Below the pieces are notes generated by a model. That model was not told the origin of the DNA. It worked only from the letters and a program-made list of their open reading frames with translations, and ran no database searches. Below, piece after piece: positions 6,136 to 60,779 of a stretch of DNA of 64,000 nt. Made by a program: the position numbers and the translations under genes. The stretch is from Alphaproteobacteria bacterium (GTDB lineage: Bacteria > Pseudomonadota > Alphaproteobacteria > JAUHZC01), in assembly GCA_030425805.1 (NCBI GenBank), contig JAUHZC010000002.1:20448-84447 (forward strand). Direction: 5' to 3'. Positions within the stretch are counted from its first letter, which is position 1. Each line of letters opens with the position of its first letter.

Positions 6136-6738
6136 TCATTCTAATATACTTTTTAAACAACGGTGCAAAACCTGCAAAAATTTTGACCTTGGCTGCAACG
6201 CCACTGTTTCAACAGCCCGATTCAAGGCAACAACAACACCCCAATCACTGTCTTCATCTGAGGGAGCACCATCTGTGAGGTGTAAAACTGGGAAGGTGAT
6301 TGTTTTACCTGCTTTCTTTTCAGCTTCAACATCTTCTCCAATAACTTGCTTCTGTTGTAGTTCCAAAACACATCGTAGGAAAAAGTCTGTAATCAGTTGC
6401 CTTGGGGTTTTTTGTGACACAGGATCTTTTCTTCCCATGTACTTTTCCTTCCCTTCAGTTGAGTTACGAACGTTTCTTACAAGTTCGTAAAAACTAATTT
6501 GTATGGGAGAAAATCCCTCTGCAACAGTGGGAGAGCTTCCCTGCAAATCAACGATAGCCAGATCCCCAAAAAAACACCATAAAGCTTGCACTCGGGCTAG
6601 CCCAACACCCCCTGGAAGTTCCTTATAGCCACAGGAAGCATAAAAAACTTCATTCAAAGTTGCAGGCCCTTTTTCCTCCGGATTAGCACCCCAAAGGGAA
6701 ACGTTTAACAAAAACAAAAAAACGAGACTATACCTCAT
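6136..6738 (-). CDS. Small secreted hypothetical protein, tandem paralog of 6728-7330
   Basis: Leader MRYSLVFLFLLNVSLWGA. The C-terminal region (DEDSDWGVVVALNRAVETVALQPRSKFLQVLHRCLKSILE) resembles the C-terminus of the upstream neighbour (DSRIWLVLSLAVSAQAKDKVNGSFLEILETEILE). Confidence 0.45.
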   Translation of the reverse strand: MRYSLVFLFLLNVSLWGANPEEKGPATLNEVFYASCGYKELPGGVGLARVQALWCFFGDLAIVDLQGSSPTVAEGFSPIQISFYELVRNVRNSTEGKEKYMGRKDPVSQKTPRQLITDFFLRCVLELQQKQVIGEDVEAEKKAGKTITFPVLHLTDGAPSDEDSDWGVVVALNRAVETVALQPRSKFLQVLHRCLKSILE

Positions 6739-7330
6739 CTGAAGCTCCACTATTCTGAGCAGCAGTTTCTGCTTCTTCAAGAAGCTCTAATATCTCAGTC
6801 TCAAGTATCTCAAGAAAGGATCCGTTAACTTTATCTTTGGCCTGTGCAGAAACAGCGAGAGAAAGCACCAACCAAATCCTGGAGTCTGATCCTGGGTCCC
6901 CCTCTTTTTCCTCGACAAAAGGCTTAAATGTATTCCCATCTCCTAGGTCTAAGGTAACCCTCGTAAAAAACGACTCAACCAGTCCGCATGCTTTTTCATC
7001 TTTTTTATCTCCAGATAAATCACTATTTCCATAATTTTCTGTAACGCCATCTAAAAGAGCAGCATATCCCCACACATTATCAAGCATTCCATCATCTTCT
7101 TCCTCATTATCAGGGATGGCCCCCATCTCTTCTTCACCTTCCTCCCAGTGGACAGAAAATGCCTTAAGGCGACGATACAAAGCAAGCTCTCGCGGCGTTG
7201 GATCAGGAGCATCGGCTGAACTTCCTACCACAGCACGCATCACCTCTTCCCAACTCATAAGCCCAGCTGCATCAGCCCCCCAGCTTGGCACAGCAAAGAA
7301 GGCACAGAAAAAAAAGAGGAGAGGCTTCAC
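6728..7330 (-). CDS. Small secreted acidic hypothetical protein
   Basis: Leader MKPLLFFFCAFFAVPSWGA followed by a highly acidic 180-aa sequence. Paralogous to 6136-6738. Confidence 0.5.
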   Translation of the reverse strand: MKPLLFFFCAFFAVPSWGADAAGLMSWEEVMRAVVGSSADAPDPTPRELALYRRLKAFSVHWEEGEEEMGAIPDNEEEDDGMLDNVWGYAALLDGVTENYGNSDLSGDKKDEKACGLVESFFTRVTLDLGDGNTFKPFVEEKEGDPGSDSRIWLVLSLAVSAQAKDKVNGSFLEILETEILELLEEAETAAQNSGASDEV

Positions 7331-7563
7331 GGGAAATCCTTAAAATTTTATTTTTTCTACAAAAGTCTATTCTTACTGTAAAGGGGTTTATTAAATAAAA
7401 TCAATGACTATACTAAGAGTTTAAACTCTTTTTAAAAAAGTATATGTTTTCTTTCTTTTCCCTGAAGACAAAGGCTTTTTTTTTCGCTAAGCTTTTGGTC
7501 ATGATTTTTTTTGCTGGGCTCTTCACAGAGCTTTCAACCTACGCGAAAAAGGAACAGCGACAG

Positions 7564-8160
7564 ATGTGGCACGACAAAACAGACACACCCTGGCTCCTTG
7601 TTGGCCTTGGAAATCCGGGTGAAAAGTATACACGTAATCGCCATAATATTGGTTTTCTTGCTGCCGATGAAATCGCTAAGGAGTATGGTTTCTCTGCCTT
7701 CAAACCCCAATTTCAAGGCCTGATTGCCCAAGGAATAATTGAAGGGCAGAAGGGTTATATTCTCAAGCCTCAGACATATATGAACCTCTCTGGTCAAAGT
7801 GTCTTGGCCGCTTGTCAGTTTTACAAAATCCCCTTGGAGCGAGTCTGCGTAATCCATGATGATATTGATCTGGAGCCTGGCAAGATTAAGCTCAAACAAG
7901 GCGGTGGACATGGGGGGCATAATGGCCTCCGGGATATTGATGCACGGTTGGGAAAAAATTACTGGCGCCTTCGGGTTGGTGTGGGCCATCCCGGCCATCG
8001 GGACGCCGTCTCGGGCTACGTCTTGAAAGACTTTCCCAAGGCGGAAGAAAAAGGCTGGGTCTTTGATTTCCTGACACAGTCCCCGCCCCTCTTTTCTCTG
8101 CTTTTCAAGAAAGAATGGGAAACATTTACATCAAAATTAAACAATTGCATAACAAGATAA
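7564..8160 (+). CDS. pth: Peptidyl-tRNA hydrolase
   Basis: Motifs WLLVGLGNPGEKYTRNRHNIGF, YMNLSGQSV and GGGHGGHNGLRDI are the Pth signature. The start is set at the MWHD ATG, which has an AGGAA sequence 10 nt upstream. The ORF-track extension from 7444 is hydrophobic and unlikely to be real. Confidence 0.85.
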   Translation: MWHDKTDTPWLLVGLGNPGEKYTRNRHNIGFLAADEIAKEYGFSAFKPQFQGLIAQGIIEGQKGYILKPQTYMNLSGQSVLAACQFYKIPLERVCVIHDDIDLEPGKIKLKQGGGHGGHNGLRDIDARLGKNYWRLRVGVGHPGHRDAVSGYVLKDFPKAEEKGWVFDFLTQSPPLFSLLFKKEWETFTSKLNNCITR

Positions 8161-8173
8161 TTTTTTTATATGA

Positions 8174-8917
8174 TTGTTTATTATGAAAAATTTTGTTTGG
8201 ATACTTATCCTTTTTCCTTCGTTTTTATGGGGTGCGCACCCTGACTGGGCACAGCGTGCGGTCCCTGATGGAGCATGTTTAAAAGGCCCTTTGGCAGATC
8301 CGAAAGAGATGACTTTAGACCATTTAAAAGTTCTCGCACGCCAATATAAAGAACTTAATGCAATATTCTTAGCAAGAAGAGAAGAGCATGGAATGATGCT
8401 GTTAGCACACGCACCTGCTTTTGCAGCTGAGCATAGAGCTTGTGCTGCCTGTACAGAAGCCTCTATTAAGCTCGGTGAAATTAATGCCGCTTTGAGGGAA
8501 GCTCCTCACGATAGAAGAATTCTCACTGCCAGAGCGGAAGCCACTGTAGTTTACCGAAGGGCCCGGCATCACTGGGAAGTTATGCATGAAGCCGCAAGAG
8601 ATCCCCGTACGAGAATTGCTGGTATAGAGGAAAACATTCAAGCTCTTTACTATCATTGTAGTTACCTTCACTGTTGTGCCCAAGAACTCGCATCTCGGGA
8701 AGAAGCCGCTGAATCAAGAGCACGTGCTGAAGCTGAAGCACACAGAAGAGCTGCTGAAGAAACTCGTGCTGCACGAGCAGCCCAAAGGCGAGAAAGAGAG
8801 GAGGCTTGGCTGGCCGCTCTAAAGCTTCATTCAGAAGCGGAAAGAGCTAGAGCTGCTAGAAACCGTGAGGAACGTGCAAGACGAAGGAGCCGTGGCGATA
8901 GTGTTTGGTCCGAATAA
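8174..8917 (+). CDS. Secreted hypothetical protein with Arg/Ala/Glu-rich C-terminal helix
   Basis: Leader MKNFVWILILFPSFLWGA. Cys-containing middle region. C-terminus REEAAESRARAEAEAHRRAAEETRAARAAQRREREEAW is charged and probably coiled coil. Confidence 0.5.
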   Translation: MFIMKNFVWILILFPSFLWGAHPDWAQRAVPDGACLKGPLADPKEMTLDHLKVLARQYKELNAIFLARREEHGMMLLAHAPAFAAEHRACAACTEASIKLGEINAALREAPHDRRILTARAEATVVYRRARHHWEVMHEAARDPRTRIAGIEENIQALYYHCSYLHCCAQELASREEAAESRARAEAEAHRRAAEETRAARAAQRREREEAWLAALKLHSEAERARAARNREERARRRSRGDSVWSE

Positions 8918-10105: not shown

Positions 10106-10123
10106 CTCCGCAACAAGTCTATG

Positions 10124-10260: not shown

Positions 10261-11676
10261 ATGTTATTTCTTAAATATATACCTGTATTTATTTTTTGCC
10301 TTCTTTCATCCACAGGATACTGTGCTGATGCAGCAGCTGCAGGAGGAGTCGATACTTTTGCAGATAAATATGCCCAAGCTGTGTCTCTACGAAACGAGTG
10401 CTTAACCGGTGGAAAAGTCGTAAACATAGGGAAGCTCATCAACGCTCAAACTTTTTTCATGCATTGTTTGTGTGGGAAAGGAGATATTCCCGGAAAAGCT
10501 ATGCACAACCTTGGCAGACTTTTCTACGCAATAGGGGATTTGCCCCTCGCCCAATTTTGGTTTCAAGCATCTTGGGACCGTCTTGGTCTGGGCGCAACAA
10601 AGAAGAATTTAGAGACTGTATGTGCAGAAATGGAAGGAAGTGAACCATCAGCAGAAACCCCACCTTCAGTTTCCCTTGCTACATCTTTTGAGGATCTTCT
10701 AACAAAGGCAGTGTTTGATGCTAACAGTCAAAAATATTTACAAGTAGCACTTATGCGCAAAAGCCTTAGTGACGATTTAAAGACAATAGCGGGAATTTGC
10801 TATAGAGATCCCCTGATTGCCTCAAAGGCTCTCCTTGCAGCTGCAGAACATCCCTTAAAGGGGGCTGTTGGCCAAATCTTTGTTTCTGATCTTGAGCTTG
10901 AAGGAGGGCAGAAGATAAATGCCACCTGTGTGCATCTTGGAGGAGGGCATATTCTTGCTAATGCACACTTTTTAACAGCTGTTCTTGATATTGCTGGTGG
11001 AGCCCTGCCTGCTAAAAAAATCTTAAGCAAGACAACTATCAGTTTAGAGGGGCGACTCTATTCCGTGCACTCTGGGTTGTTAAAAAAAGGCCATGATACA
11101 GAGCTCAACCCTCCTCTTACATCGGGTGCATTTGATTTTCGTAATGATCTCTTGCTCCTTCATTGTCCAGAAGCAGCTGGTGCAGCGACAATCCCTGTTG
11201 CAAAGGCTGCTTCTGCAGAAGAATTTCCTATGGCGTGTACTGTCCTGAGTTATGCCACGCCGAAGGTTGGTGATTTTTCTACATCATTTGCAGCATTACC
11301 TGTTCTTGCAATGTCTGAAGCTAGGCTTCATCGTGAAGAAGGAATGTATCCTCGTTTGTTCCCGGGTATGGAAGGGTGCTTAACTGTTGATGTTGCAACA
11401 ACAAACCCTGCAGAATTAGCGTTTGCTGATGCTCATGTTCCGGACCTTCACTTACCAGCTGCTTATGGCTCATCTACTTCAGGTTCTCCTTTTATCAATT
11501 CAAAAGGAGAAATTGTCGGAATTCTTGCTAATTCTCATGTATCTGTTACTACAGGAGAGCCCCCTGTATATATAAATACAAATTTTATTGTTGACCTTAC
11601 AAGGCCAGAAATCAGGTCATTTCTAGCTGCTAACTTGGGGAGTGCACCTCCGGCGGATACCATTTTTGCAGAATAA
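10261..11676 (+). CDS. Secreted protein with C-terminal trypsin-like (S1/Trypsin_2-type) serine-protease-like domain
   Basis: Leader MLFLKYIPVFIFCLLSSTGYCADA. Candidate catalytic triad in canonical order: His in GGGHILANAHFLTA, Asp in NDLLLLHC, and Ser in GSSTSGSPFINSKGEIVGILANS (a GDSGSP-like box). Confidence 0.5.
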   Translation: MLFLKYIPVFIFCLLSSTGYCADAAAAGGVDTFADKYAQAVSLRNECLTGGKVVNIGKLINAQTFFMHCLCGKGDIPGKAMHNLGRLFYAIGDLPLAQFWFQASWDRLGLGATKKNLETVCAEMEGSEPSAETPPSVSLATSFEDLLTKAVFDANSQKYLQVALMRKSLSDDLKTIAGICYRDPLIASKALLAAAEHPLKGAVGQIFVSDLELEGGQKINATCVHLGGGHILANAHFLTAVLDIAGGALPAKKILSKTTISLEGRLYSVHSGLLKKGHDTELNPPLTSGAFDFRNDLLLLHCPEAAGAATIPVAKAASAEEFPMACTVLSYATPKVGDFSTSFAALPVLAMSEARLHREEGMYPRLFPGMEGCLTVDVATTNPAELAFADAHVPDLHLPAAYGSSTSGSPFINSKGEIVGILANSHVSVTTGEPPVYINTNFIVDLTRPEIRSFLAANLGSAPPADTIFAE

Positions 11677-11704
11677 TCTTCCCTCCAGCCCTCCTCTTTT
11701 TTTA

Positions 11705-11843
11705 CAGTCATCGCGAGCCCTGACAGGGCGCGGCGATCCATAAGATGCTTGGATTCCGGGTCGGAGTCTGGAATGACGATGCAGCCTTATGAAGGTCACT
11801 CCGGACCCTCACACTAAAGTCACCCCGGACTTGATCCGGGGTC
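11705..11843. repeat. Composite palindromic repeat element (modules A-B-C), downstream of clpP
   Basis: Reads gtcatcgcgagccctgacagggcgcggcgatccataagatgcttggattccgggtcggagtctggaatgac...gtcaccccggacttgatccggggtc. About 95% identical over roughly 100 nt to 57241-57340. Contains hairpins ATCGC..GCGAT, ATTCCGGG/CCCGGAAT-like and ACCCCGGA/TCCGGGGT. Confidence 0.8.
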
Positions 11844-11854
11844 TATAATTAAAG

Positions 11855-12490
11855 CTAAGCTGCCACTTCTTCAGTTGAGGTAGGACGGTTAGTGATAACG
11901 TGATCAATAAAGCCCAGTTTCTTTGCCTCTTCAGGGCCTAAGAAACGGTCACGCTCAAGGAGCTCTTCGATCTTCTTCACACTTTGCCCAGAAGCTGTCG
12001 CATACATCTCGTAAATACGCTTACGGAGCTCAATGATCTCACGGGCATGAATTTCAATATCTGTCGCCTGACCCCGAGCACCACCTAAAGGTTGGTGAAC
12101 CATGATGCGGGAGTTGGGCAATGCATAGCGCTTGCCTTTCGATCCCATCGTGAGCAAGAGAGATCCAGCAGAGGCTGCTTGTCCCATGCAAATGGTTGCT
12201 ACATCTGGCTTGATATAATTAATCGTATCCATCATCGCCAAGGCCGATGTCACCACGCCACCCGGAGAATTGATATAGAGGAAAATATCTTTCTTAGGAT
12301 TCTCTGACTCCAGGAATAGAAGCTGAGCACAAATCAATGAAGCCACCTGGTCATTCACCTCCCCTGTGAGGAAGATAATTCTTTCTTTCAAAAGACGGGA
12401 ATAGATGTCGTATGAACGTTCCCCCCGGTTTGTTTGCTCAACAACCATTGGTACCAATGTACTTGCTACGGTGGGATCAAATTCGCTCAT
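11855..12490 (-). CDS. clpP: ATP-dependent Clp protease proteolytic subunit ClpP
   Basis: Motifs [20 protein letters not shown] and [22 protein letters not shown]. Catalytic Ser-His-Asp context conserved. Confidence 0.93.
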
Positions 12491-12654: not shown

Positions 12655-13584
12655 ATGCATAAAATACTTATCTATTTAATTTTATTACTCACCTTTAATA
12701 CAACTTTCTCTGTGTTTGCTGCAGGAGTAGCAGAAGGAAGTGGCGCAGCAGCCATGGAAGGGGGCTCAACAGCAGCACTTAGCCTGCATCCTGTTGTTAG
12801 CTCAGAAGACTTATGCCGAGCCCTAAAGGTTGCAGCTGAGGGAAGCAAAGAAAAAGGGCCAGAATTTGTTGATACTGATCCTAAGGGAATTTGGGAAGGT
12901 TTCCGGGATTTCAATGAGGAAAGGGAACGACTGGAAGGTCTTCGCCACGGCAGAGTTCCTGACTGCGCCATGAAAATCTACGTTATAGAGGCCCGCTCTC
13001 CAGGAACAGGTCCTGCTGATGTCGGTTACCTCATCTTAGATAGGCCGATAACACTTGAAGGAAAACTTAAAAATGACGCAGAAGAAGATGATGATGGTAT
13101 TTCTGATTATGAATCAGCATTGTCAGTGGAGGCTGCAGTTGCTGCCACATCAAGACGTCCAGAATACTATACAGAAATAATTAGTTTTGTTCTCCCAAAA
13201 TACCGTGGACGGGGAATTGGCAAAGGGCTGAGAGGCCTCATCATTGATATGGTACATCCCGCAGTAGGAATCCCCTGTTTGGATGGTATTTTTGCGGGTG
13301 CTTTGTCTGTTGTTAATGGAGAAAACACCAGACAGCTTCACATTGCTGGAAAATATGGCTCCCTCACTTTTGGGCCAACAGTTCCCCCTATTATCGTCCC
13401 CGTTGTAGACAACCTTGGAATCAAAGATGTCTACTTTACCTATCCACCTCGTAGACTTCCCCCAACCGCAAACCCAAGATTCTATGCTCAGATGGTGGAT
13501 GCCTTGAGACGGGGGGATAAAGACAAGACTCTTGAATGCTGGATACGGTACGTAAGATCTATAGCATCTAAAAGATTCCGATAA
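12655..13584 (+). CDS. Secreted hypothetical protein with GNAT-acetyltransferase-like motif
   Basis: Leader MHKILIYLILLLTFNTTFSVFAAG. C-terminal half has VGYLILD...ISFVLPKYRGRGIGKGLRGLIIDM, which fits the GNAT motif-A acetyl-CoA loop (V.P..RG.GIGK.L). Confidence 0.45.
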   Translation: MHKILIYLILLLTFNTTFSVFAAGVAEGSGAAAMEGGSTAALSLHPVVSSEDLCRALKVAAEGSKEKGPEFVDTDPKGIWEGFRDFNEERERLEGLRHGRVPDCAMKIYVIEARSPGTGPADVGYLILDRPITLEGKLKNDAEEDDDGISDYESALSVEAAVAATSRRPEYYTEIISFVLPKYRGRGIGKGLRGLIIDMVHPAVGIPCLDGIFAGALSVVNGENTRQLHIAGKYGSLTFGPTVPPIIVPVVDNLGIKDVYFTYPPRRLPPTANPRFYAQMVDALRRGDKDKTLECWIRYVRSIASKRFR

Positions 13585-13586
13585 TT

Positions 13587-14255
13587 TCATTCACCTCGTG
13601 GTGGGGAAAGTGATGCGACAGCAAGAAGAAATTCCCGTGCCCGAGGTTCAAGAACTTCACTTTTTGAAAGCATTCGAAACACATGAGAAATGGATGCTGA
13701 CATTTGGCGAAGGCCATCCATCTTAAGAGCCTCCATCTGAGAGGGGGTAAGGTTTATATAGACAAATAAACCTTCCTCCTCTTCCTCAATCCAGCTGCGG
13801 GGTGAAGCCAGAGAGTCAAAACTCTCTCCGGCTTTCAAAACCTGGATAATGAGTATCATTGACCCGCCTTTCAACCTTTCTTCCAGAGGGGCATAATTCA
13901 AGAGAGCTTGAGAATTCGGCAGGCGAAATGCAAAAAAATCCTCCCATCTTTCACAACAAGCTTCTTGGACAGATTGCTGACAAAAGGGATGCGCTCCTTC
14001 AATTTCATTGCGCACCTTTACAAGAGATGTCCTTGTAATACCAGGTATGCCTATAGCTGATCCAAGCAGAGCCTTAAAGGATGCTCCCCGCACAAGATGC
14101 TTTCCTACAGTACCTGCATAATGACACCGAGCAGCCCATAAGGGATCTTCCGGAATCCGGCTAGAATGTGAAGAAGATAAAACAATTGCCCCAAACCCTT
14201 GAGAAACAAAACAAATGTGAAAAATAATAACGAATAAATACTGTTTCGGATTCAT
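13587..14255 (-). CDS. Secreted hypothetical protein
   Basis: 222-aa ORF convergent with 12655-13584. Leader MNPKQYLFVIIFHICFVSQGFGA. No recognisable domain. Confidence 0.45.
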   Translation of the reverse strand: MNPKQYLFVIIFHICFVSQGFGAIVLSSSHSSRIPEDPLWAARCHYAGTVGKHLVRGASFKALLGSAIGIPGITRTSLVKVRNEIEGAHPFCQQSVQEACCERWEDFFAFRLPNSQALLNYAPLEERLKGGSMILIIQVLKAGESFDSLASPRSWIEEEEEGLFVYINLTPSQMEALKMDGLRQMSASISHVFRMLSKSEVLEPRAREFLLAVASLSPPRGE

Positions 14256-15836: not shown

Positions 15837-16508
15837 ATGAAAAAGACACTGTCATTTCTTCTTCTCACAACAGTCCCCACCCTTGCCAGCGCTGAATTCT
15901 ATGCAGGTGTTCAAGGCACAGCCACCCGCCTTCGCGTGACCGGCACAACGGATGAAGAGGGTTTAGAAACGGTAAACATTTCAAAAAATAGCTCCAACCT
16001 GTCTTTTGGAGTCTATGGTGGGTACAATCACACATTTACTGAAAAAATAATGGCAGGGATTGACTTAGCATTAGATTTTCCTGCTCACACAAAGGAAACT
16101 TTTATTGTTTCTAAAGCTGACGGTGACCCCTATGATGACGGTGCACATTCAGTCTCATACCAGAGAAAATTTAGCGTGACACCTTGTGTCACACTTTCTT
16201 ATGTCCAGAATAAAGAATGGACATTTTACGTTAAAGCTGGTCCCTCTATCTCAAGGGAAGGAGCCACTTTAACAAAGGGAAGTTCAAATACTAAAGAAGT
16301 CATTAAAACAAAAGTTAGACCGTATCTTGGTTTCGGCTCTACATACAACATCAATAAAGTTGGCATCAAGCTTGAATATGCACATATTTTTGGTAAGAAG
16401 CGGATTGCTGTTACGAATGTGGCAGGTGCTGGTGGAGATAATGGTAATGTCTATCTCAAGCAGTCTCCTGGGCACAATTTCAAAATCGGGGTGCATTATA
16501 GGTTTTAA
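15837..16508 (+). CDS. Small outer-membrane beta-barrel protein (OmpA-like / Omp25-like 8-strand barrel)
   Basis: Leader MKKTLSFLLLTTVPTLASA. Alternating amphipathic beta pattern (GVYGGYNH, TFYVKAG). C-terminal aromatic signature GVHYRF. Confidence 0.6.
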   Translation: MKKTLSFLLLTTVPTLASAEFYAGVQGTATRLRVTGTTDEEGLETVNISKNSSNLSFGVYGGYNHTFTEKIMAGIDLALDFPAHTKETFIVSKADGDPYDDGAHSVSYQRKFSVTPCVTLSYVQNKEWTFYVKAGPSISREGATLTKGSSNTKEVIKTKVRPYLGFGSTYNINKVGIKLEYAHIFGKKRIAVTNVAGAGGDNGNVYLKQSPGHNFKIGVHYRF

Positions 16509-16510
16509 CA

Positions 16511-17710
16511 ATGAAAAAATTTGTATCTATATGTTTCCTTCTTTTGTTATCCTTTGACGCATGGGGAGCTGCTACGAAATTCTCAAAAGCAGAAGAGGAA
16601 AGGTCTGTCAGAAAGCTTTTAGAAAGGATTGGACGTAAGTCACCAACCAGAGAGCTTGTTGATTTTTTCATTTCAAAACTTCCTGAATTAAGGGGGTTAC
16701 CCAGCAAAAATGCTCGAACAGCAAGAGCAACCAAGCTGTTAAAAGATTACACCGCTGAGAAGAAAGGCGAAGCAAAAGCTCGTGCCGCAGAGGCTGCCAG
16801 GTTGCGAGCTGAGAGAGAGGCGGCGGCTGCTGCTGTAGACAGAGGAGGTGCTGATGGGCCAGTGGATGCAGGGGGTGATTTAGCATCTCTTGCAAGTTCT
16901 GAGGAGGTCGACGACCCTGATGAACGCGCAAGAAGAGAAGCTCTTGCTCTAGAAGAAGCTATTGCGCTGCGAGAACTTGCACGTGCAGAGAGAGCTCAGC
17001 GGGTAGAGGCTGAAGAAAGCGCACGCCGTCAAATTGGAAATATTACAGCAGCACAGAGAATAGGGAAAGCCTGGAGAGAGAGGACTCAGCGTGGAGTAAT
17101 GCGGGACCTTGGGGGTGCTGCAAGAGAACGCGTTAGAGAAGCTAGAGCCCAACGTGAGACTGCAGTAGCAGAACGAGCGGAAGCTGTTGCTGCAAGAGAG
17201 GAAGCAGAAGCTCAACGTGAGTTAGCACAAACCGCACAGCAAGAAGCAGAAGCCCAACGTGCGGCTGCAGAAGCAGAACGAGCAGAAGCTGTTGCTGCAA
17301 GAGAGGAAGCAGAAGCTCAACGTGGGTTAGCACTAGCAGCGCAAGCAACTGCTGAGGGTGAACGTGACGCCCTAATTCGTGCTGTTTATGGGTTAGGTGC
17401 AACAGATGGCATTACAGCAGGACAGAGGGACAGAGCACTTGAAAGAGCGAGAATAAGCCGGCAGCTTCGAGAGGAATTGATTCGGCGGGATCAGGATCCA
17501 GTTAACTGTAAGTTTAGAAGCTATGCAAGAGGTGCAAATACTGACACAGAGCTTCAAGTTTTACAAAATGCTTTGGATGCTCTCCTTGTAGCAGCTCCTG
17601 AGCCAAGAACATGTTTTCCTCTCGGGCGTGGACCGTGGGCTATACAAGGGCAAATCCACAGGGATTTCCTTGCACCACCAGCAGCGGCAGGGGCGGCAGC
17701 TGCTGAATAG
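16511..17710 (+). CDS. Secreted Ala/Glu/Arg-rich coiled-coil repeat protein
   Basis: Start is 2 nt after the barrel gene stop. Leader MKKFVSICFLLLLSFDAWGA. A 105-nt (35-aa) tandem duplication AEAVAAREEAEAQRELAQ.../AEAVAAREEAEAQRGLAL... lies at about 17163-17340. Confidence 0.6.
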   Translation: MKKFVSICFLLLLSFDAWGAATKFSKAEEERSVRKLLERIGRKSPTRELVDFFISKLPELRGLPSKNARTARATKLLKDYTAEKKGEAKARAAEAARLRAEREAAAAAVDRGGADGPVDAGGDLASLASSEEVDDPDERARREALALEEAIALRELARAERAQRVEAEESARRQIGNITAAQRIGKAWRERTQRGVMRDLGGAARERVREARAQRETAVAERAEAVAAREEAEAQRELAQTAQQEAEAQRAAAEAERAEAVAAREEAEAQRGLALAAQATAEGERDALIRAVYGLGATDGITAGQRDRALERARISRQLREELIRRDQDPVNCKFRSYARGANTDTELQVLQNALDALLVAAPEPRTCFPLGRGPWAIQGQIHRDFLAPPAAAGAAAAE

Positions 17711-17740: not shown

Positions 17741-17769
17741 AGCCTCAGAACATCCTGGGGCTTTTTTTA
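17741..17769 (+). terminator. Rho-independent terminator
   Basis: agcctcag-aacatc-ctggggct stem (8 bp with one G-U pair) followed by T7. Lies 30 nt after the 16511-17710 stop. Confidence 0.6.
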
Positions 17770-17814
17770 TTTAAGAAGAAACAAGAACCGATGCCCTTGT
17801 TCAGTGCTTCTTCT

Positions 17815-18185
17815 GGACCCCGGATCAAGTCCGGGGTTTCGAGGGGAGGTCCTGGGGTTTCGAGGAGAGTCCTTGGGTTTTGATGAGGAGTGATAAGATT
17901 TAGGCGAAGGGTGCTGAATTTTACTGCGAGGCCTGAAGATCTGTGGCAGTCTGTACGTGGATTGCCACGTCGCTGCGCTCCTCGCAATGACCTTGAAAGT
18001 TTGTGCTTCTTGCAATAACCTCATTACCATTAGGAAACCTGCTCCCTTCTATCGCGAGCCCTCACCCTTCTCTATTGTCATCGCGAGCTCGAAGGGCGTG
18101 GCAATCCATATATCGAAATTCCAGCGAAGGCTGGAATCCAGGATTATCTTCTCCCCTGCAAAAGCAGGGGGCTGGTTTTTATTTT
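17815..18185. repeat. Mosaic palindromic repeat cluster (modules C, G-rich GGGGTTTCGAGG repeats, F, A with 1.5 copies, D, E)
   Basis: Carries ggaccccggatcaagtccggggt; ggattgccacgtcgctgcgctcctcgcaatgacc; ctatcgcgagccctcacccttctctattgtcatcgcgagctcgaagggcgtggcaatcc; attccagcgaaggctggaat (GNRA-type loop); and cccctgcaaaagcagggg. The same modules recur at the other repeat loci. Confidence 0.8.
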
Positions 18186-18258
18186 ACTATGAGGTTAAAT
18201 TTTCAGCACTCGCGATGGCCAAAACCTGTTTCTCGACTTTCCAGAAGGAGATTTCCGG

Positions 18259-19497
18259 CTAAATCACACGCGCCACACCAGGGATGCGACGTACAAGGAT
18301 AGAAAGCACAAGGGTTGCAGGCAAAGCTATAGCAAAGCAAACACCCCCTTTGATGATTGAGGGAATATCACTCCCCTTAAAATAACTTTGTACAAAAATA
18401 ACCACGGGCAAGTGAAAGAGGAAAAGCGCCATGGTGTTTTCACTTAGCCGCTGCCAAAGGAGACTCAGGGTTTGAAAGCGCCCTTTAAAGAGCAACATCA
18501 ACCCCATAATCCAGCTCAGCATCACGGTCACAAAGAGAAGACACCGAGGGAAAACCCCGATAAAGTGATCCCAGAGATAAGGCCAAATCCTCCAAAAGGA
18601 CCCTCCTCCTTGACGATAGAAAACAAAATCTTGATTCCGTACAATATCTTTATCCCCTCCCAATGTGTACGCCAAATACAGTATGGCAGAGAGCATCATC
18701 GTGAGATAAATTTTCCCTTTATGCCGGGACAGAGCCTCGATCACAGCACTATCTCTCAAAAGGCCACTTTGTGCAATCCCAGCCCCAAGGAAGAATAAAG
18801 CAACATTTGTTGTTAGCTGAGAAGGCACGAAACTCAGGACAATAAGGGTTCCGGTCCATGCCCGAAAACCTGTCAAGAAATCACCAACCCAAACACCAAA
18901 AGCCAAAATCAGAATCAAGAGCCCAACTTGCTTCGGCTTAAGATCCTGTATCAGAGCTTTGGTATATGATGCAAGACGCTCAAGAGCTTTGGGAAATACG
19001 GCCCATATCAATACATAGAGCAAAGAAAGAATCATCAAATAAGGTAAAAACCAATATGTCCCCGCAGAGGAGAGGCGCTCCCAATACACTGAGGAAAAGT
19101 GATAATCAAGGTAGCCCATTGCCTCGCCATAAAAGCCAGGATAAAGAGACAAGCGTTCTACATACTTTGGATACATTAAGGGAGGAAGTAAAAGAGGCGT
19201 GAGAACCCCAAGAGGCACCAAAAGCCGTAGCGCCCGACTGATGATGAATTTCTTCTCCCCATATTTAGAAAGAGAGTGATATGAGAAAATCCCAGCTACA
19301 AAGAGAGCTCCCGGCACCATATACACATCTGTTAAGAGAATCAAAATATCAAAGAAAACATCTTGATTAAAAGCAGACTCCTCTACAAACCAACTTCTAG
19401 AGAGAACTGTGCCGTAAGGAAAAAAACAGTGATGAAAAATGATGCTGAGAATAAAGAATGCCCGCAAAGCATCAAGATAAGAAATCCGCTGTGCCAC
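18259..19497 (-). CDS. Acyltransferase family 3 (OpgC/OafA-like) integral membrane protein
   Basis: N-terminus ISYLDALRAFFILSIIFHHCF is typical of Acyl_transf_3, followed by about 10 predicted TM segments. Confidence 0.6.
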   Translation of the reverse strand: MAQRISYLDALRAFFILSIIFHHCFFPYGTVLSRSWFVEESAFNQDVFFDILILLTDVYMVPGALFVAGIFSYHSLSKYGEKKFIISRALRLLVPLGVLTPLLLPPLMYPKYVERLSLYPGFYGEAMGYLDYHFSSVYWERLSSAGTYWFLPYLMILSLLYVLIWAVFPKALERLASYTKALIQDLKPKQVGLLILILAFGVWVGDFLTGFRAWTGTLIVLSFVPSQLTTNVALFFLGAGIAQSGLLRDSAVIEALSRHKGKIYLTMMLSAILYLAYTLGGDKDIVRNQDFVFYRQGGGSFWRIWPYLWDHFIGVFPRCLLFVTVMLSWIMGLMLLFKGRFQTLSLLWQRLSENTMALFLFHLPVVIFVQSYFKGSDIPSIIKGGVCFAIALPATLVLSILVRRIPGVARVI

Positions 19498-19619: not shown

Positions 19620-20549
19620 ATGCGATTCATTTTTCAATTTTTCTTTCTTCTTTTTCTTACTTTTTCTTCGGTTTATTCTGCAAATCCTGGAGGAGTAGAG
19701 CCCCAGGGGGGAACGCCTGCGGCAGCAAGCGGGGCCGCTGTTCCCAACCCAGATCCTCCTGCTGCTGATGCGCCTCCCCCAGCAAACGGCTTGTGGGGAT
19801 GTTTGCAACGTTGCTTGCAATTTATGGGATGTCGGCGCCGCAATGCAGTTGGGCCTCAAGAGGCTGCCGCTGAGGAAGGTGAAGTTGCTGCTGCCGCTGC
19901 AGATCCCGCAGAACATGTTGTTATGCCTGGATGCTGCAGCCGTGTTCGAAGCGCTTTAAGCTGCAGCAGAGCTACATGCACCCGATTTAGGGAAGGTGTA
20001 CGAAAAACTGGGCTTGTTGTTTCAGTTTTACTCATTCCTGCTGCCTATTCCCTCTCCAGTTTTGCAATCAACGATGTTAGGACTATTATTGATGCAATCA
20101 ACGATGAAAGAGTTCTTGGTTGCTGTAATCGTGGCGTAGAATGCAGCACCTACTACAACTCTGCCACCCGAAGTTCAACTCGAAGCTGTAGGGATGTTTG
20201 GGTTTGCTGGTATGCTGGAGGCATACTTCATCATAGTCATTGTAAAAAGTATGCGCATGGGGTTTCTGGGTACATTACGAGCCTATTGTTTGCAGGCGCT
20301 GCAGTCAATGCACTTTGTGCGCACAGACCTGACTCTTGGGTTACCAGTGGCGAAAAAGGAATGTCAAGATTCCTCCTCCTGGTAGCTGCGGGAACGGGTG
20401 TACTGATCCACGGATGCATTGAAGGCTTTATGCCAGAGGGACCTATGTGCCCCCCTTATGAGATCAATCCTGACCATCTTCTTCCAGGGCCTGGCACAAG
20501 ACCTGCGTGGTCCATTCCTGCCTACGAAGGCGAAGGGGGATGTGCCTAA
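19620..20549 (+). CDS. Cys-rich hypothetical membrane/secreted protein
   Basis: Leader MRFIFQFFFLLFLTFSSVYSA. Pro/Ala-rich linker. Many Cys (CLQRCLQFMGC, PGCCSRVRSALSCSRATC, GCCNRGVEC) plus two internal hydrophobic segments. Confidence 0.45.
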   Translation: MRFIFQFFFLLFLTFSSVYSANPGGVEPQGGTPAAASGAAVPNPDPPAADAPPPANGLWGCLQRCLQFMGCRRRNAVGPQEAAAEEGEVAAAAADPAEHVVMPGCCSRVRSALSCSRATCTRFREGVRKTGLVVSVLLIPAAYSLSSFAINDVRTIIDAINDERVLGCCNRGVECSTYYNSATRSSTRSCRDVWVCWYAGGILHHSHCKKYAHGVSGYITSLLFAGAAVNALCAHRPDSWVTSGEKGMSRFLLLVAAGTGVLIHGCIEGFMPEGPMCPPYEINPDHLLPGPGTRPAWSIPAYEGEGGCA

Positions 20550-23361: not shown

Positions 23362-23524
23362 AAAAAACCTCTAGAGGTCGTTGTGCACTTTTCTCAATTT
23401 TTAGGATATGCACAGAAGTCTTAACAAATTCTTGGGATTCCAAGAGGTTTGCACTTTAACATACCCTGTAAAGAGCGTCACCTCAGTTGTGTAGCCCTTC
23501 TTCTAATTTCCAAAATCCCTGCAT

Positions 23525-23765
23525 TCATGGATTGCCCAGGCGCTGAGTTCCTCGCAATAACTTCCTTACTGTCATCGCGAGCCCTCACCCTTCTCTATTG
23601 TCATCGCGAGCCCTGAAAAGGCGTGGCGATCCATAAGAGATTTGGATTCCGGGTCGGGGCCCGGAATGATGAAGTAGCGGCCCCCGGACTCTCATTTAAA
23701 GTCATCCCAGACTTGATCCGGGGTCTATGGACTGCAGCAATGCTGCGCTCCTCACAAAAATCAAG
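23525..23765. repeat. Mosaic palindromic repeat cluster (modules F, A with 1.5 copies, B, C, F)
   Basis: Carries ggattgcccaggcgctgagttcctcgcaat; tgtcatcgcgagccctcacccttctctattgtcatcgcgagccctgaaaaggcgtggcgatccataaga; ggattccgggtcggggcccggaatgatg; agacttgatccggggtc; and ctgcagcaatgctgcgctcctcac. Confidence 0.8.
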
Positions 23766-24465
23766 CTCTTTCGTTCTCTCTTGGGGAGGTCAATCCAGCC
23801 CGGTCAAGGATGCTAGCTACTTCTTGTTTTTCACCATTGTCCAAGACAGCATAGAAAGTCGTAAGGTCTAGTGCCACCCTAAAAGATCCCAATACAGCGG
23901 TCTGAACAGCGGCAGAATCCCTATAAGCTGATGGGTACATTGTGTTATACAGCGCAGGATGCATAACATAAAAAGAAGGATTTCCTTCACCGGAAATAGC
24001 ATACAAGGTGCCCCACTTACCAGCAATGTATGCGGACCCACCAAAAGCTATGCCCCTCATGAGAAGAGGAGCAAGGCCTCTAGACTTCGAAAGAAAACGA
24101 GTTTGTGAAAGCAAAGAAAGAGAGAGAACTGAGAGCGCTGCTCCTGCTCTGCTTGCAAAGGCAGCATCCTCCTTCGCCCTCTCAAAAACTAAGGCTGTCC
24201 GTTCTTCGAAGTACTTTTGCCACGCCTGTCCCTTTAATGAATCAACTTCTGATACAGCTAATATAGCTCCAAATTTTCTCCTAGCAACCGCTGCTTTAAG
24301 GGCTTCGGCAACACGCCCCACAGAAGCAGCAGGAGATAAATTTACACCTCCGATTCTCACAACTTCTTCCTTTCCATCTGCCCCATGAACAGAGTCAGAG
24401 GAAAAACTGATTCCTAAGTAGATAAATAAGAGGGTTTTTGTGAGCAAATTGGACATGGGAAGCAC
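23761..24465 (-). CDS. Secreted hypothetical protein
   Basis: Leader MSNLLTKTLLFIYLGISFSSDSVHGA. 234 aa. No recognisable domain. Confidence 0.45.
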   Translation of the reverse strand: MLPMSNLLTKTLLFIYLGISFSSDSVHGADGKEEVVRIGGVNLSPAASVGRVAEALKAAVARRKFGAILAVSEVDSLKGQAWQKYFEERTALVFERAKEDAAFASRAGAALSVLSLSLLSQTRFLSKSRGLAPLLMRGIAFGGSAYIAGKWGTLYAISGEGNPSFYVMHPALYNTMYPSAYRDSAAVQTAVLGSFRVALDLTTFYAVLDNGEKQEVASILDRAGLTSPRENERA

Positions 24466-57199: not shown

Positions 57200-57700
57200 A
57201 CAATTGTGAGCCCTGAAAGGGCGTGGTGATCCATAAGATACTTGGATTCCGGGTCGGGGCCCGGAATGACGACGCAGTCTTATGAAGGTCACTCTGGACC
57301 CTCACACTAAAGTCACCCCGGACTTGATCCGGGGTCCATGGATTGCAGCAATGCTGGGCTCCTCGCAATTGTGACTTTCTGAATGGGAAGAGAGATCGAA
57401 ATTCCAGCGAAGGCTGGAATCCAGGACTCTTTTCTCCTCTGCGAAGGCAGGGACTTTTTTTCCTGGACCCCGGATCAAGTCCTGGGGTTTCGAGGGGAGG
57501 TCCTGGGGGTTTTGGGGAGAATGCTGGGGTTTTGTCTTTCTTCGTCACATATTTCAGACTTACAATCGCGAAGTCCGGAGGCCTGTGGCGATCCATAAGA
57601 TGCTTGGATTTCGGGTCAAGCCCGGAATCACCTCTTTAGTGCCCGGAATGGCCACTTTTGCTATATGGAGAATCGAAATTTCGGAATCAAATGAAGATCC
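57200..57700. repeat. Largest mosaic palindromic repeat cluster (modules A, B, C, F, D, E-variant, inverted C with G-rich repeats, A', B')
   Basis: Region 57241-57340 is about 95% identical to 11745-11845. Contains attccagcgaaggctggaat, gaccccggatcaagtcctggggtttcgagggg, and a second ...cgcgaag..ggcgatccataagatgcttggatttcgggtcaagcccggaat copy. Confidence 0.85.
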
Positions 57701-58778: not shown

Positions 58779-58825
58779 AAATACAGGTTGAAGGAGAGCG
58801 TGGTCTCGTGTAAAAAGAATCCATC

Positions 58826-58900
<75 letters not shown>

Positions 58901-58914
58901 TTTTCCCTATACTT

Positions 58915-58988
58915 TCTCTATCGTCATCGCGAGCCCTCTCCATTCTCTATCGTCATCGTGAGCCCGAAGGGCGTGGCGATCCACATTT
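58915..58988. repeat. Repeat module A (1.5 copies) immediately 3' of tRNA-Val
   Basis: tctatcgtcatcgcgagccctctccattctctatcgtcatcgtgagcccgaagggcgtggcgatccaca. Confidence 0.8.
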
Positions 58989-59052
58989 TACCATAACTAA
59001 CCCAAGGAAAATGGCGGAGAGAAAGATTGTGCCCTTTCAAAATTTTTGAAAA

Positions 59053-59141
59053 TGGCGGAGAGAGAGGGATTCGAACCCTCGGTACGCAGAGCGCACAACG
59101 GTTTTCGAGACCGCCCCGTTCGACCACTCCGGCATCTCTCC
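59053..59141 (-). tRNA. tRNA-Ser (anticodon CGA), type II
   Basis: Reverse complement GGAGAGATGCCGGAGTGGTCGAACGGGGCGGTCTCGAAAACCGTTGTGCGCTCTGCGTACCGAGGGTTCGAATCCCTCTCTCTCCGCCA. Long variable arm and anticodon loop CTCGAAA. Confidence 0.85.
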
Positions 59142-59205
59142 AATCTCTTTTCTTAAACGTTTCCCCCCCAAATTTCAATCCTTCAAGCACATAGTTTCCA
59201 TATTC

Positions 59206-59922
59206 TTATGGTTCATTCCCACCTTCAGAACCTGGATCTTCATAGCCACCCCCCAAGGCGACATCTATGACCTCAAGAAGACTTGGTTTAGATTGGGGAT
59301 AGAGGGTAGCCTTATGCACGCCACTCCTGATGGCCCCTGCCATGATGATAATATTTGGAAGTTCTGAGCAGGTGATTCTATACCCACCCTCAACTAGAAA
59401 TACTTCACAGCTTATATCTCTCCTCGTGTCATCTAAAACAGTAAGATAAGCAGTAGGAGGATGAACAGCTCCCGGAATTGTCTCGCTTTCTAAGATGCTT
59501 AAGGTAAGACCAAAAACATTATAAGGATCTAACTTTTCTGTACACCAAGCTTTGCACCACCTCTCCTTTTGGGTGTAGGATCCATATAAAATTTCAAACA
59601 TAGGGATGTGGTCACGCCGCCAGGCTTCTCTAAAACGGGACTCACTAAAGGATACTCTCCCAGCGGCAGAACGTGAAAAACCAATTGCTTCAAAATGAGA
59701 CCATTGTTGCATCACAGTCTCTTCAATAGCGCTTGGGAAATGTTTTGCACCGCAAGCACTTAGGGTCCGCCTCCACTTTGCACAAGCTGCGTTGTATGGC
59801 CCACAAAACTCTTGGCAGGAAACGACCAATCCCTGACATCTTTCCTCAAGGGGGCCAGGCTCTGCAGCTCCCCAGGCTGAAGAGTGATAGCAAAAGAAAA
59901 GAATCAAAAAGATCTGTAACAT
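59206..59922 (-). CDS. Secreted Cys-rich hypothetical protein
   Basis: Leader MLQIFLILFFCYHSSAWGA. Mature part has 12 or more Cys (CQGLVVSCQEFCGPYNAACAKW...). Confidence 0.45.
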   Translation of the reverse strand: MLQIFLILFFCYHSSAWGAAEPGPLEERCQGLVVSCQEFCGPYNAACAKWRRTLSACGAKHFPSAIEETVMQQWSHFEAIGFSRSAAGRVSFSESRFREAWRRDHIPMFEILYGSYTQKERWCKAWCTEKLDPYNVFGLTLSILESETIPGAVHPPTAYLTVLDDTRRDISCEVFLVEGGYRITCSELPNIIIMAGAIRSGVHKATLYPQSKPSLLEVIDVALGGGYEDPGSEGGNEP

Positions 59923-59942
59923 TTGTTTTCTAGCCTTTTTTT

Positions 59943-60779
59943 TTAGTCTGACATTGATTCAAGTGGGATGCTGTACTTCTCACGCAAAGCCTCTAGTTCG
60001 CTTGCAAGGGTAGGAAATAAAATCCCCGTGTAGGGGGTTAAAATCACTTTCCGCCCAGAGTTACTCGGGGAAGTCGCTGGAAAAAGATCAGCTTTTGTTC
60101 CTAAAAACAAAACGTCCAAGCACATGAGATCTGTGGGGGTTGCATCCTCTGGAAAATCATGTTGAAAACACATTCCAGCCTCAGAGACAACACATTCAGC
60201 CTCAACTTGTTTTTCACTTCCATCAGTATCTGTATATGTAAAGCTTGAGGAAAGAAGGCCTCCCTCACAAACAGCATATTGAAAGATGATTTCTTCTTTT
60301 CTGGAAAACAGAGCATCACACGCTCTTTGGCGAACAATAAAATGAGGTTTATCAGCAAGATAACCACCATGAGTATATGCCAATAAATCCCAGCATCTTT
60401 GCAAAATATTTTGAGTTAGCGCTGCTGAATCAAAGACAAATCGGCCGTCCGACTCAGTAATACCAAAAAGCTCAAATCCATCAAAAGCCTGTAACCGAGA
60501 AGCTTTGTCTTGGTCTTCTGCTGAAAAAGCATCTGAATTTTTAGCCTGAAAAGCTTGGATTGCATTTAGGGCCAAGCAAACCCCTGCAACAGTCCTATGC
60601 ATATCCTCAGATGTTGGAGAAGGAGAGCGTGGATCCTCAGTCCCAAGACTATGATTTGAGAGTGCTTCTGTGAGCCTTTGGGCTGGTGTTAGATCAGGCG
60701 AGGCGCCTGATGGAATTCCTACTGCTGCAGCCCAAATCTTAGAACAGCAAATAAAAACCATGAAGACATAAACCTTCAT
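59943..60779 (-). CDS. Secreted hypothetical protein
   Basis: Leader MKVYVFMVFICCSKIWAAA. 278 aa, Cys-containing, with no recognisable domain. Confidence 0.45.
   Translation of the reverse strand: MKVYVFMVFICCSKIWAAAVGIPSGASPDLTPAQRLTEALSNHSLGTEDPRSPSPTSEDMHRTVAGVCLALNAIQAFQAKNSDAFSAEDQDKASRLQAFDGFELFGITESDGRFVFDSAALTQNILQRCWDLLAYTHGGYLADKPHFIVRQRACDALFSRKEEIIFQYAVCEGGLLSSSFTYTDTDGSEKQVEAECVVSEAGMCFQHDFPEDATPTDLMCLDVLFLGTKADLFPATSPSNSGRKVILTPYTGILFPTLASELEALREKYSIPLESMSD

Follow-up and report, generated by a model that had tools for sequence, protein, structure and literature searches.

The DNA analysed here is a 64-kb stretch of an alphaproteobacterial genome (contig JAUHZC010000002.1; in the following called the window), together with a 4 kb flank beyond its right end. 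It encodes a set of secreted orphan proteins (ORFans), whose N-terminal leaders recurrently end in an aromatic residue followed by a small residue and Ala. The window has a GC content of ~46% and carries the housekeeping genes clpP, clpX, ruvA, ruvC, recF, gyrB, pth, ychF, kdsA, pyrG, fabF and a ChpT-like gene. Many lineage-specific open reading frames (ORFs) are interspersed with these alphaproteobacterial genes; the genomic Ala content of the non-orphan genes is 8.7%. Neither a signal peptidase gene (lepB) nor a secretion-system gene was found in the window. The flank comes from contig L001, which adds two leaders to the data set. L001 and a second contig, L082, which lies inside the window, are short Logan contigs of run ERR3420974. 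Among the matches listed for the Pth protein (one genome per GTDB species), identity does not exceed 59–61%, and exact copies of the window proteins are known only from a 358-kb NCBI contig and the ERR3420974 assemblies. By these sequence comparisons, the source organism is therefore phylogenetically isolated.

Leaders of the secreted orphan proteins

An earlier note on this DNA had pointed to WGA, WAA or FGA endings in eight leaders. All eight are present as described; in each case the motif closes the hydrophobic N-terminal leader of a lineage-specific protein. Five leaders, those of the proteins with starts at 6738 (−), 7330 (−), 8183 (+), 16511 (+) and 59922 (−), end in WGA (within residues 16–21). 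One, in the protein starting at 60779 (−), ends in WAA, and two, in those starting at 3221 (+) and 14255 (−), end in FGA. The position of the Trp in the leaders is very uniform, at residue 16–18 from the start. For the ORF beginning with a TTG at 8174, the true start is most likely the ATG at 8183; an independent gene call on L082 gives the same 244 amino acids (aa). A wider pattern, [WFYH]-[GASC]-A (Ar-[GASC]-A below), which was defined after inspection of the data, is found in seven more leaders, and one further leader (25196) has IGA, with no aromatic residue.

Potential cleavage sites were scored with log-odds matrices over positions −10 to +3, built from the residue frequencies of 307 Gram-negative and 1877 eukaryotic verified signal peptides (Choo & Ranganathan 2008; PMC2638155, Additional file 2). 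The Gram-negative matrix finds the known cleavage sites of six E. coli precursors. A matrix derived by expectation maximisation from the control loci fell back to its AxA initialisation and was uninformative, and the published tables were used instead. The leaders are listed below with the predicted cut (↓). Where two scores are given, the first is for the proposed cut and the second for a cut after the motif Ala, unless stated otherwise.

6685–6738, minus strand: leader MRYSLVFLFLLNVSLWGA of the ORFan 6136–6738 (200 aa); proposed cut SLWG↓A, the top site of the Gram-negative matrix (VSLWG↓ANP), 5.9 vs −6.9 bits; the longest ORF extends to 6780.
7274–7330, minus strand: leader MKPLLFFFCAFFAVPSWGA, with a GTG start, of the ORFan 6728–7330 (200 aa); proposed cut PSWG↓A, 11.4 vs −2.9 bits.
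8183–8236, plus strand: leader MKNFVWILILFPSFLWGA of the ORFan 8183–8917 (244 aa); proposed cut FLWG↓A, 4.3 vs −6.2 bits.
16511–16570, plus strand: leader MKKFVSICFLLLLSFDAWGA of the ORFan 16511–17710 (399 aa), an Ala/Glu/Arg-rich, coiled-coil-like protein with an internal 105-nucleotide (nt) repeat; proposed cut DAWG↓A, 9.0 vs −7.5 bits.
59866–59922, minus strand: leader MLQIFLILFFCYHSSAWGA of the ORFan 59206–59922 (238 aa), its n-region without a basic residue; proposed cut SAWG↓A, −0.1 vs −7.8 bits, and top site of the eukaryotic matrix with 5.8 bits.
60726–60779, minus strand: leader MKVYVFMVFICCSKIWAA of the ORFan 59943–60779 (278 aa); proposed cut KIWA↓A, 1.3 vs −5.6 bits, and top site of the eukaryotic matrix with 7.5 bits.
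3221–3292, plus strand: leader MKNVSLCVLALLLIFLGEYRAFGA (...EYRAFGA) of the Ala-rich ORFan 3221–5452 (743 aa); proposed cut RAFG↓A in an atypical c-region with Glu and Arg, −6.2 vs −11.9 bits, weak in either register.
14187–14255, minus strand: leader MNPKQYLFVIIFHICFVSQGFGA (...SQGFGA) of the ORFan 13587–14255 (222 aa); QGFG↓A or GFGA↓I, the register being ambiguous with −5.2 bits before Ala and −3.3 after.
10261–10326, plus strand: leader MLFLKYIPVFIFCLLSSTGYCA (GYCA) of the ORFan 10261–11676 (471 aa), a protein with a weak trypsin-like match; TGYC↓A, top site of the eukaryotic matrix with 10.9 bits.
12655–12723, plus strand: leader MHKILIYLILLLTFNTTFSVFAA (VFAA) of the ORFan 12655–13584 (309 aa); SVFA↓A, top site with 3.5 bits.
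19620–19682, plus strand: leader MRFIFQFFFLLFLTFSSVYSA (VYSA) of the ORFan 19620–20549 (309 aa); SVYS↓A, top site with 8.9 bits, 3.0 after Ala.
24379–24456, minus strand: leader MSNLLTKTLLFIYLGISFSSDSVHGA (VHGA) of the ORFan 23761–24456 (231 aa); SVHG↓A, top site with 4.0 bits.
47756–47806, plus strand: leader MNKFALSILATVFTFSA (TFSA) of the Gln/Ala-rich repeat protein 47756–49858 (700 aa); TFS↓A (VFTFS↓ADA, 4.8 bits) or the canonical ADA↓G two residues on (FSADA↓GYY, −0.3 bits).
53331–53399, minus strand: leader MRKIFLVFISILFVACANQGYAA (GYAA) of the ORFan 51600–53399 (599 aa), start at 53399; GYA↓A, top site with 4.4 bits.
25196–25270, plus strand: related leader ...SACIFFLMTTSCVIGA (VIGA) of the small ORFan 25196–25633, with Ile in place of the aromatic residue; VIG↓A (3.6 bits) and IGA↓Q (5.1 bits) both obey the −3/−1 rule.
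L001:409–903, minus strand: motif leader (LFGA) in the flank to the right of the window.
46548–46616, minus strand: leader MISWERLVQIFLGIWLVAMPLYG of the ORFan 44874–46616 (580 aa), in which Tyr-Gly is followed by Glu and not Ala; top site MPLYG↓EKQ, LYG↓E being the best cut that obeys the −3/−1 rule.
15837–15893, plus strand: contrasting leader MKKTLSFLLLTTVPTLASA of the conserved outer-membrane beta-barrel protein (OMP) 15837–16508 (PF13505, E = 4.5e-7).

Counted over the window and the flank, 16 of the 19 leaders of the signal peptidase I (SPase I) type fit the motif, the VIGA of 25196 included. The three others belong to the OMP at 15837 (+; ASA↓E), to 44874 (−; LYG↓E) and to L001:2719 (+; GQA↓Q). 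Among 17 ORFan leaders, 15 carry the motif; the one conserved OMP leader does not. This OMP, the window's sole conserved SPase I substrate, has a canonical Ala-Ser-Ala site that lacks an aromatic residue.

The tripartite architecture of a Sec leader is seen in each of the 16 motif leaders. The n-region consists of Met and 0–2 basic residues (1–8 residues in length), and the h-region of 11–14 residues is rich in Phe, Leu and Ile, poor in Ala and has a mean Kyte-Doolittle value of at least 2.3. The c-region follows the consensus Ser/polar-[A/V/L/I/G/S/T]-[W/F/Y/H]-[G/A/S/C]-Ala; the exception is the c-region of 3221 with its Glu and Arg. With 17–25 residues they are short compared with the median of 23 in canonical bacterial leaders, and they have only 0–2 positive charges. 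Hydrophobic cores of 11–14 residues are too short to anchor a protein stably in the membrane; the mature parts are mostly hydrophilic, and most members have no additional transmembrane segment. In the h-core, Ala accounts for 9%, Phe for 18% and Ile for 13%, compared to 20%, 7% and 11% in the 156 control leaders described below.

As a separate observation, Cys occurs in or beside the hydrophobic core in at least 9 of the 16 motif leaders (e.g., FFFCAFF, SICFLL, FFCYHS, FICCSK, IFCLL), whereas it is almost non-existent in verified bacterial signal peptides (PMC2638155). Its share of the h-core is 6% here, compared with 4% in the control leaders.

The frequency of the motif was compared with compositional expectation on the window proteins and on two sets of control loci. 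Among 19,739 tripeptide positions of the window proteins, W[GA]A occurs eight times, and six of these occurrences lie at residues 16–19 of leaders, where ~0.125 would be expected (Poisson P = 4.8e-9). The first control comprised 80 loci (1.3 Mb) of other Alphaproteobacteria with 156 signal-peptide-like N-termini. The second comprised 120 metagenome loci with 79 N-termini, on contigs of unrelated organisms that had been found via the loose core of an intergenic repeat. N-termini were collected with a crude, heuristic and motif-blind signal-peptide detector, which has false positives and misses and was run with identical code on the window and the controls. It missed the leader of 19620, where further hydrophobic segments may be the reason. 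Following a hydrophobic core, Ar-[GASC]-A was found in 12 of 26 window N-termini (46%) but in only 7 of the 156 alphaproteobacterial controls (Fisher P = 1.5e-7) and in 4 of the 79 metagenomic ones, a rate of 4–5% over the 235 control leaders. For W[GA]A the numbers were 6 of 26 and 1 of 156 (P = 3e-5). The matches in the controls were spread over unrelated loci. The motif is thus well above expectation, and it is confirmed as real, strongly enriched and lineage-specific relative to other Alphaproteobacteria.

Predicted cleavage register and export

The earlier note had placed the Trp at position −3 of the cleavage site, that is, with the cut after the motif Ala. Comparison with published SPase I cleavage-site statistics supports one part of this statement and shifts the other. 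Trp at P3 (−3) is indeed unusual, with 0.00% in Gram-negative (0/307), 0.00% in Gram-positive and 0.05% in eukaryotic (1/1877) signal peptides, and the four residues F, H, W and Y together reach 1.3% at P3 against 30% at P2 in the Gram-negative set (PMC2638155). In the same tables, Ala is found at −1 in 93% of the Gram-negative sites and is also the commonest residue at +1 (P1′, 41.7%). As to the register, 13 of 15 leaders score higher under the Gram-negative matrix when cut before the motif Ala than when cut behind it, with sums of +51 and −56 bits. The eukaryotic matrix gives +91 and +7 bits in the same comparison. The site x-Ar-small↓Ala is the top site of the Gram-negative matrix in 9 of the 15 motif-type leaders, or in 10 of the 18 scored leaders if LYG↓E of 44874 is counted. 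The published tables thus favour a Trp at −2 over one at −3. Most likely, the cut lies one residue before the position assumed earlier, at a predicted site [AVLIGST]-Ar-[GASC]↓A, with the Trp at the permissive −2 position.

In this proposed register, P3 is occupied by L, S, L, A, A, I, A, G, G, V, V, V, G, T and L and P1 by G, A, S or C, which are the sets allowed at −3 and −1. Over all 19 leaders, position −1 is taken by Gly (11 leaders), Ala (5), Ser (2) or Cys (1), and the −3 residue is mostly Ala, Val, Leu or Gly. The −3/−1 rule (the Ala-X-Ala motif reportedly described by von Heijne and by Perlman and Halvorson), together with the absence of Pro at +1, is obeyed by 16 of 16 motif leaders if they are cut before the Ala and by 1 of 16 if they are cut after it. 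The P4 residues are heterogeneous and polar (R, S, P, F, T, S, Q, D, S, S, C, Q, S, K, P). This is expected if −4 is solvent exposed, as stated in a review of SPase I that describes a small S1 pocket, a slightly bigger S3 pocket and solvent-exposed positions −2, −4 and −5 (PMC9360617).

Judged from these sequence features, the leaders are probably ordinary Sec-type signal peptides for SPase I (LepB), written in a lineage-specific dialect, rather than carriers of a new sorting signal. The ORFans would be exported by Sec, and LepB would cut between the small residue and the Ala, as suggested by the matrices and the −3/−1 rule. The released mature proteins would then begin with Ala followed by acidic or polar residues. 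The side chains at −3 and −1 would occupy the S3 and S1 pockets as usual. Going by the published enzyme-substrate model, the aromatic side chain at −2 may face away from the enzyme and toward the membrane interface. Trp, Tyr and Phe are residues favoured at the membrane interface. The recurrence of the motif could arise because the export machinery and the mutational background of the organism favour this c-region, so that unrelated, fast-evolving secreted ORFans would converge on the leader form favoured in the lineage. As nearly all exported proteins of the window are fast-evolving ORFans, neither a homology of the leaders nor a pathway of their own would be needed to explain why the motif recurs. 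The dedicated sorting or processing signal considered in the earlier note is possible but required by none of the results obtained here.

Several features weigh against this interpretation. The site residues deviate strongly from verified Gram-negative sets, by P values that were computed with each count one lower than observed and are hence conservative. In the proposed register, 11 of the 19 leaders have Gly at −1 (2.9% in the verified sets; P ~ 3e-11), 6 have Trp at −2 (2.3%; P ~ 3e-6) and 16 have Ala at +1 (41.7%; P ~ 2e-4). An aromatic residue at −2, in the predicted and matrix-favoured register before the Ala, is likewise found in 16 of 19 leaders against 30% (P ~ 1.5e-5). The matrix scores average ~3.4 bits, below most of the E. 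coli controls (2–19 bits), and the matrices were built from organisms whose peptidase may differ from that of this organism. At first sight, an Ala that hardly varies would be taken for the −1 residue. With the OMP at 15837 as the only conserved substrate (n = 1) and its ASA site lacking an aromatic residue, the dialect could also be specific to the ORFans. Furthermore, the pipeline of Payne et al. 2012 was pre-filtered for small or aliphatic residues at −3 and was blind to aromatic −3 sites (mBio, PMC3509430); that study therefore cannot speak against such sites. The leader sites are a real dialect and not a canonical motif that was misread.

Alternative explanations and the surroundings of the orphan genes

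The orphan status of the proteins, as described in the earlier note, was borne out by homology searches. In a look-up of identical sequences, ten window proteins, nine secreted orphans and ClpP, are each the sole member of their 90% cluster among ~15 billion proteins. Word-indexed HMMER searches with 59206, 10261 and 44874 returned the query itself as the only match. An exhaustive phmmer search with 6728–7330 against 1.84 billion representatives likewise found only the query and not its neighbour 6136–6738. No Pfam match above threshold (E ≤ 0.01), conserved-leader families included, was obtained for the secreted ORFans.

The ORFans begin or lie at 3221, 5530, 6136, 6728, 8174, 10261, 12655, 13587, 16511, 19620, 23761, 25196, 44874, 47756, 51600, 59206 and 59943. 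They represent about a quarter of the window genes, nearly all have signal peptides, and none of those tested has a detectable homologue. Their GC content at third codon positions (GC3) is 0.34, compared to 0.44 in the conserved genes, and their Ala content is 14.5%, compared to 8.7%. Their strong codon-position periodicity points to genuine protein-coding genes in another regime, being young, fast-evolving or foreign.

The motif could have been inherited if the leaders were homologous, either through repeated, partly tandem duplication with mature domains that diverged beyond recognition or through repeated recruitment of a leader module, for which the SVM effector families of phytoplasmas are an example. 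Such a shared origin, which would be compatible with a Sec dialect, appears unlikely. The earlier note had considered an expanded family generated by duplication; our comparisons gave no support for it. All-against-all BLASTP of the window proteins yielded no pair of secreted-ORFan mature domains with E < 0.01. In Smith-Waterman comparisons of the mature domains, shuffle z values did not exceed 4.6, and the top values came from low-complexity Ala/Glu/Arg stretches. The leaders together with 60 nt of upstream DNA have a mean z of 0.7 and show no similarity beyond 11–14 nt encoding A-W-G-A-A in one pair, so that only codons of the motif itself are shared. What the leaders have in common is their composition and the motif, the kind of likeness expected if they converged on one export machinery.

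What speaks for homology is, besides the uniform position of the Trp and the common composition of the ORFans, the arrangement of two gene pairs. The adjacent ORFans 6136–6738 and 6728–7330 both encode exactly 200 aa and overlap by 11 nt (6728–6738). The downstream gene begins within the final nucleotides of its upstream neighbour, which suggests co-transcription and possibly translational coupling. Calling them clearly tandem paralogs was, however, an overstatement: their BLASTP E value is 0.48, with a shuffle z of 3.4–3.7 and 0–4 of 500 shuffles reaching the score. AlphaFold2 single-sequence models of both proteins are all-helical, but their pLDDT values of 39.5 and 38.8 (6136 and 6728) are too poor for a fold comparison. 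The adjacent 59206 and 59943 have a BLASTP E value of 0.074 and a shuffle z of 2.7–3.6. Other pairs are mostly near zero in the shuffle test, with 6728/59943 reaching a z of 3.0. An ancient tandem duplication is possible for 6136/6728 and for 59206/59943, going by these comparisons.

A cut after the Ala (Ar-Gly-Ala↓) would be the work of an SPase I whose S3 pocket is enlarged, or of a second peptidase dedicated to these leaders. The motif would then be a specialised processing or sorting tag of the lineage-specific secretome, possibly of host-directed effectors. We regard this as rather unlikely. The motif Ala is invariant by definition, 18 of 19 leaders offer an Ala as −1 residue, and Ala is the residue that dominates verified Gram-negative sites at −1. 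Three consecutive positions are constrained, more than the −3/−1 rule demands, and the presence of the motif in the ORFan leaders but not in the conserved OMP leader would fit a tag. The lineage is also isolated enough, judging by its Pth, for a divergent peptidase to be conceivable. On the other hand, this register calls for an aromatic residue, in six leaders a Trp, at the −3 position where such residues are so rare in the published tables. It scores lower in the 13 leaders mentioned above and is ~107 bits worse overall. It gives no account of why the −2 residue should be limited to G, A, S or C and the −4 residue to small or aliphatic ones. In 44874, where Tyr-Gly is followed by Glu, there is no Ala to cut after, and only the register before the Ala position fits. 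In addition, the window contains no peptidase or secretion-system gene. If an aromatic −3 residue or a dedicated peptidase were nevertheless true, it would mean a new substrate specificity for a well-studied enzyme that is an antibiotic target.

The stronger version of this idea would make Ar-Gly-Ala a dedicated tag. A divergent or second peptidase with an aromatic-accepting S3 pocket or a three-residue reading would then serve a separate leader class, reserved for a large and fast-evolving secretome of this lineage whose members are candidate host-interaction proteins. Housekeeping envelope proteins, the OMP at 15837 among them, would keep their AxA leaders. This we consider quite improbable. 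That the motif is a chance or compositional product of scanning many hydrophobic N-termini is hardly credible: the pattern was indeed defined post hoc and its widening to [WFYH][GASC]A enlarged the net, but six of the eight W[GA]A tripeptides fall into the same four leader positions, the window rate of 46% stands against 4% and 5% in two control sets run with the same code, and the LFGA instance lies in the 4 kb flank, which was examined only afterwards.

Other features of the window include a mosaic family of intergenic repeats at 11687–11875, 17745–18170, 23520–23760, 57180–57620 and 58905–58990. It is composed of modules such as GTCATCGCGAGC...GGCGTGGCGATCCA and ...TTGGATTCCGGGTC..., with copies that are 68–94% identical. 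The repeats are often located just 3′ of secreted ORFans or beside tRNA genes, and they create the spurious ORFs 17745–17987, 17957–18262 and 57198–57596. A strict pattern of the repeat had 0 matches in metagenomes. Its loose core was found in at least 120 metagenome contigs, which belong to unrelated organisms with no close relative among them; the repeat is therefore a member of a widespread class. Repeats are also found inside two of the secreted proteins. The Gln/Ala-rich protein 47756–49858 contains internal tandem repeats of 153 nt (three copies) and 105 nt (four to five copies), and the 105-nt duplication of the 16511 protein, at 17137–17346, encodes AEAVAAREEAEAQR.

Two further genes have unusual N-termini. 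Pth (7444–8160, plus strand) has a hydrophobic N-terminal extension of ~45 residues (MFSFFSLKTKAFFFAKLLVMIFFAGLF...) without counterpart in its homologues, with which alignments begin at residue 45–51. Translation may in fact begin at the internal Met at residue 41; otherwise, this Pth would be membrane-anchored. The gene at 39229–40581 (minus strand) encodes a protein of 450 aa with a lipoprotein leader (FLLGC↓T) and a C-terminal region resembling histidine-triad (HIT) proteins (...HTHLHV...), assigned by sequence motif only. An exported or lipid-anchored member of the HIT family would be unusual.

Comparison with known leader types

Three other classes of bacterial leaders were considered and rejected. 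In lipoprotein (SPase II) leaders, with their lipobox L-[AS]-[GA]-Cys, an invariant Cys is needed at the position where the motif leaders have Ala; genuine lipoboxes occur separately in the window, in 24637 (−; VAAC↓G) and 39229 (−; LLGC↓T). Leaders of the twin-arginine (Tat) pathway, which have S/T-R-R-x-F-L-K within a long n-region, do not match, as none of the motif leaders contains RR and their n-regions have 1–8 residues. In type IV prepilin or pseudopilin leaders, which are short and charged and are cut after a Gly that precedes F/M-x-x-x-E and a hydrophobic helix, the arrangement differs as well: here, the hydrophobic segment lies upstream of the Gly, and the downstream part is polar or acidic with no Glu at +5.

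With canonical Sec/SPase I leaders, the leaders share the n/h/c architecture and the lack of a lipobox Cys and of a twin-arginine. They also share a small residue at −1, a small or aliphatic one at −3, no Pro and preferably Ala at +1, and an acidic or polar early mature region. They differ in that, in the predicted register, Gly dominates −1, that an aromatic residue at −2 is near-obligatory, with Trp in six leaders, and that the h-region is rich in Phe, Leu and Ile with 9% Ala.

Close parallels in the same class come from Ehrlichia chaffeensis and Pelagibacter ubique, for which divergent SPase I motifs were found by proteomics, with Ser dominant at −3 and −1 (PMC3509430). In these motifs Phe is significant at −2, leading to the statement that "-2 is not an unrestricted position", and the h-regions are low in Ala and high in Phe plus Ile; Bartonella has an intermediate Ala content and is described as "in transition" (PMC3509430). 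Common to these organisms and the one studied here are the alphaproteobacterial lineage, the marginal role of Ala in the motif and the h-region, the aromatic residue at −2 (here in the predicted register) and a proteome with less Ala than is typical of free-living Alphaproteobacteria. The h-regions of our leaders, with 31% Phe plus Ile and 9% Ala against 18% and 20% in the 156 control leaders, fit the class of Payne et al. There are also differences. Theirs is a motif with Ser at −3/−1 and Phe as the aromatic residue, whereas here the predicted sites mostly have Gly at −1, often Trp or Tyr as the aromatic residue, and a near-fixed Ala at +1. As Ser is not dominant at −3/−1, our leaders are not members of the exact Ehrlichia/Pelagibacter motif. 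Their motifs were verified by proteomics, whereas ours is read from sequence, and the GC content of 46% and the Ala content of 8.7% are intermediate here and not extreme.

Eukaryotic signal peptides for the endoplasmic reticulum (ER) resemble the leaders in their short n-region of low charge, the Leu/Phe-rich core and a length of ~17–23 residues. At −1 they accept Gly (20.7%), Ser and Cys, at −3 Val, Ile and Leu, and Trp is found at −2 in 4.2%. The eukaryotic matrix fits the leaders better than the Gram-negative one (+91 vs +51 bits), which may reflect that it is the looser matrix. In contrast, the genes are bacterial, intron-less and located among bacterial housekeeping genes, and nothing points to a eukaryotic translocon. 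The possibility of host-derived or eukaryote-type signal peptides, with only the fit to the eukaryotic matrix in its favour, was rejected because of these surroundings.

Another kind of resemblance exists to the phytoplasma SVM, oomycete RxLR and Plasmodium PEXEL signatures, which are also N-terminal and occur on lineage-specific secreted proteins with unrelated or diverged mature parts. The SVM signature is a homology of the whole leader, and RxLR and PEXEL are separate motifs downstream of the cleavage site. Here, by contrast, the signature consists of three to four residues at the cleavage site itself, on leaders without homology in sequence or DNA.

The motif is a cheap handle for listing the secretome of an uncultured, isolated bacterium. 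In such lineages, cuts may be misplaced or overlooked by predictors that were trained on E. coli-like sites, and with them the true N-termini of candidate effectors. If the dialect were confirmed, with Gly at −1, Trp, Tyr or Phe at −2 and Ala at +1, it would be the third example of divergent SPase I site usage, here in an alphaproteobacterium, next to the known Ser-Phe-Ser/Ala type and the spirochaete type.

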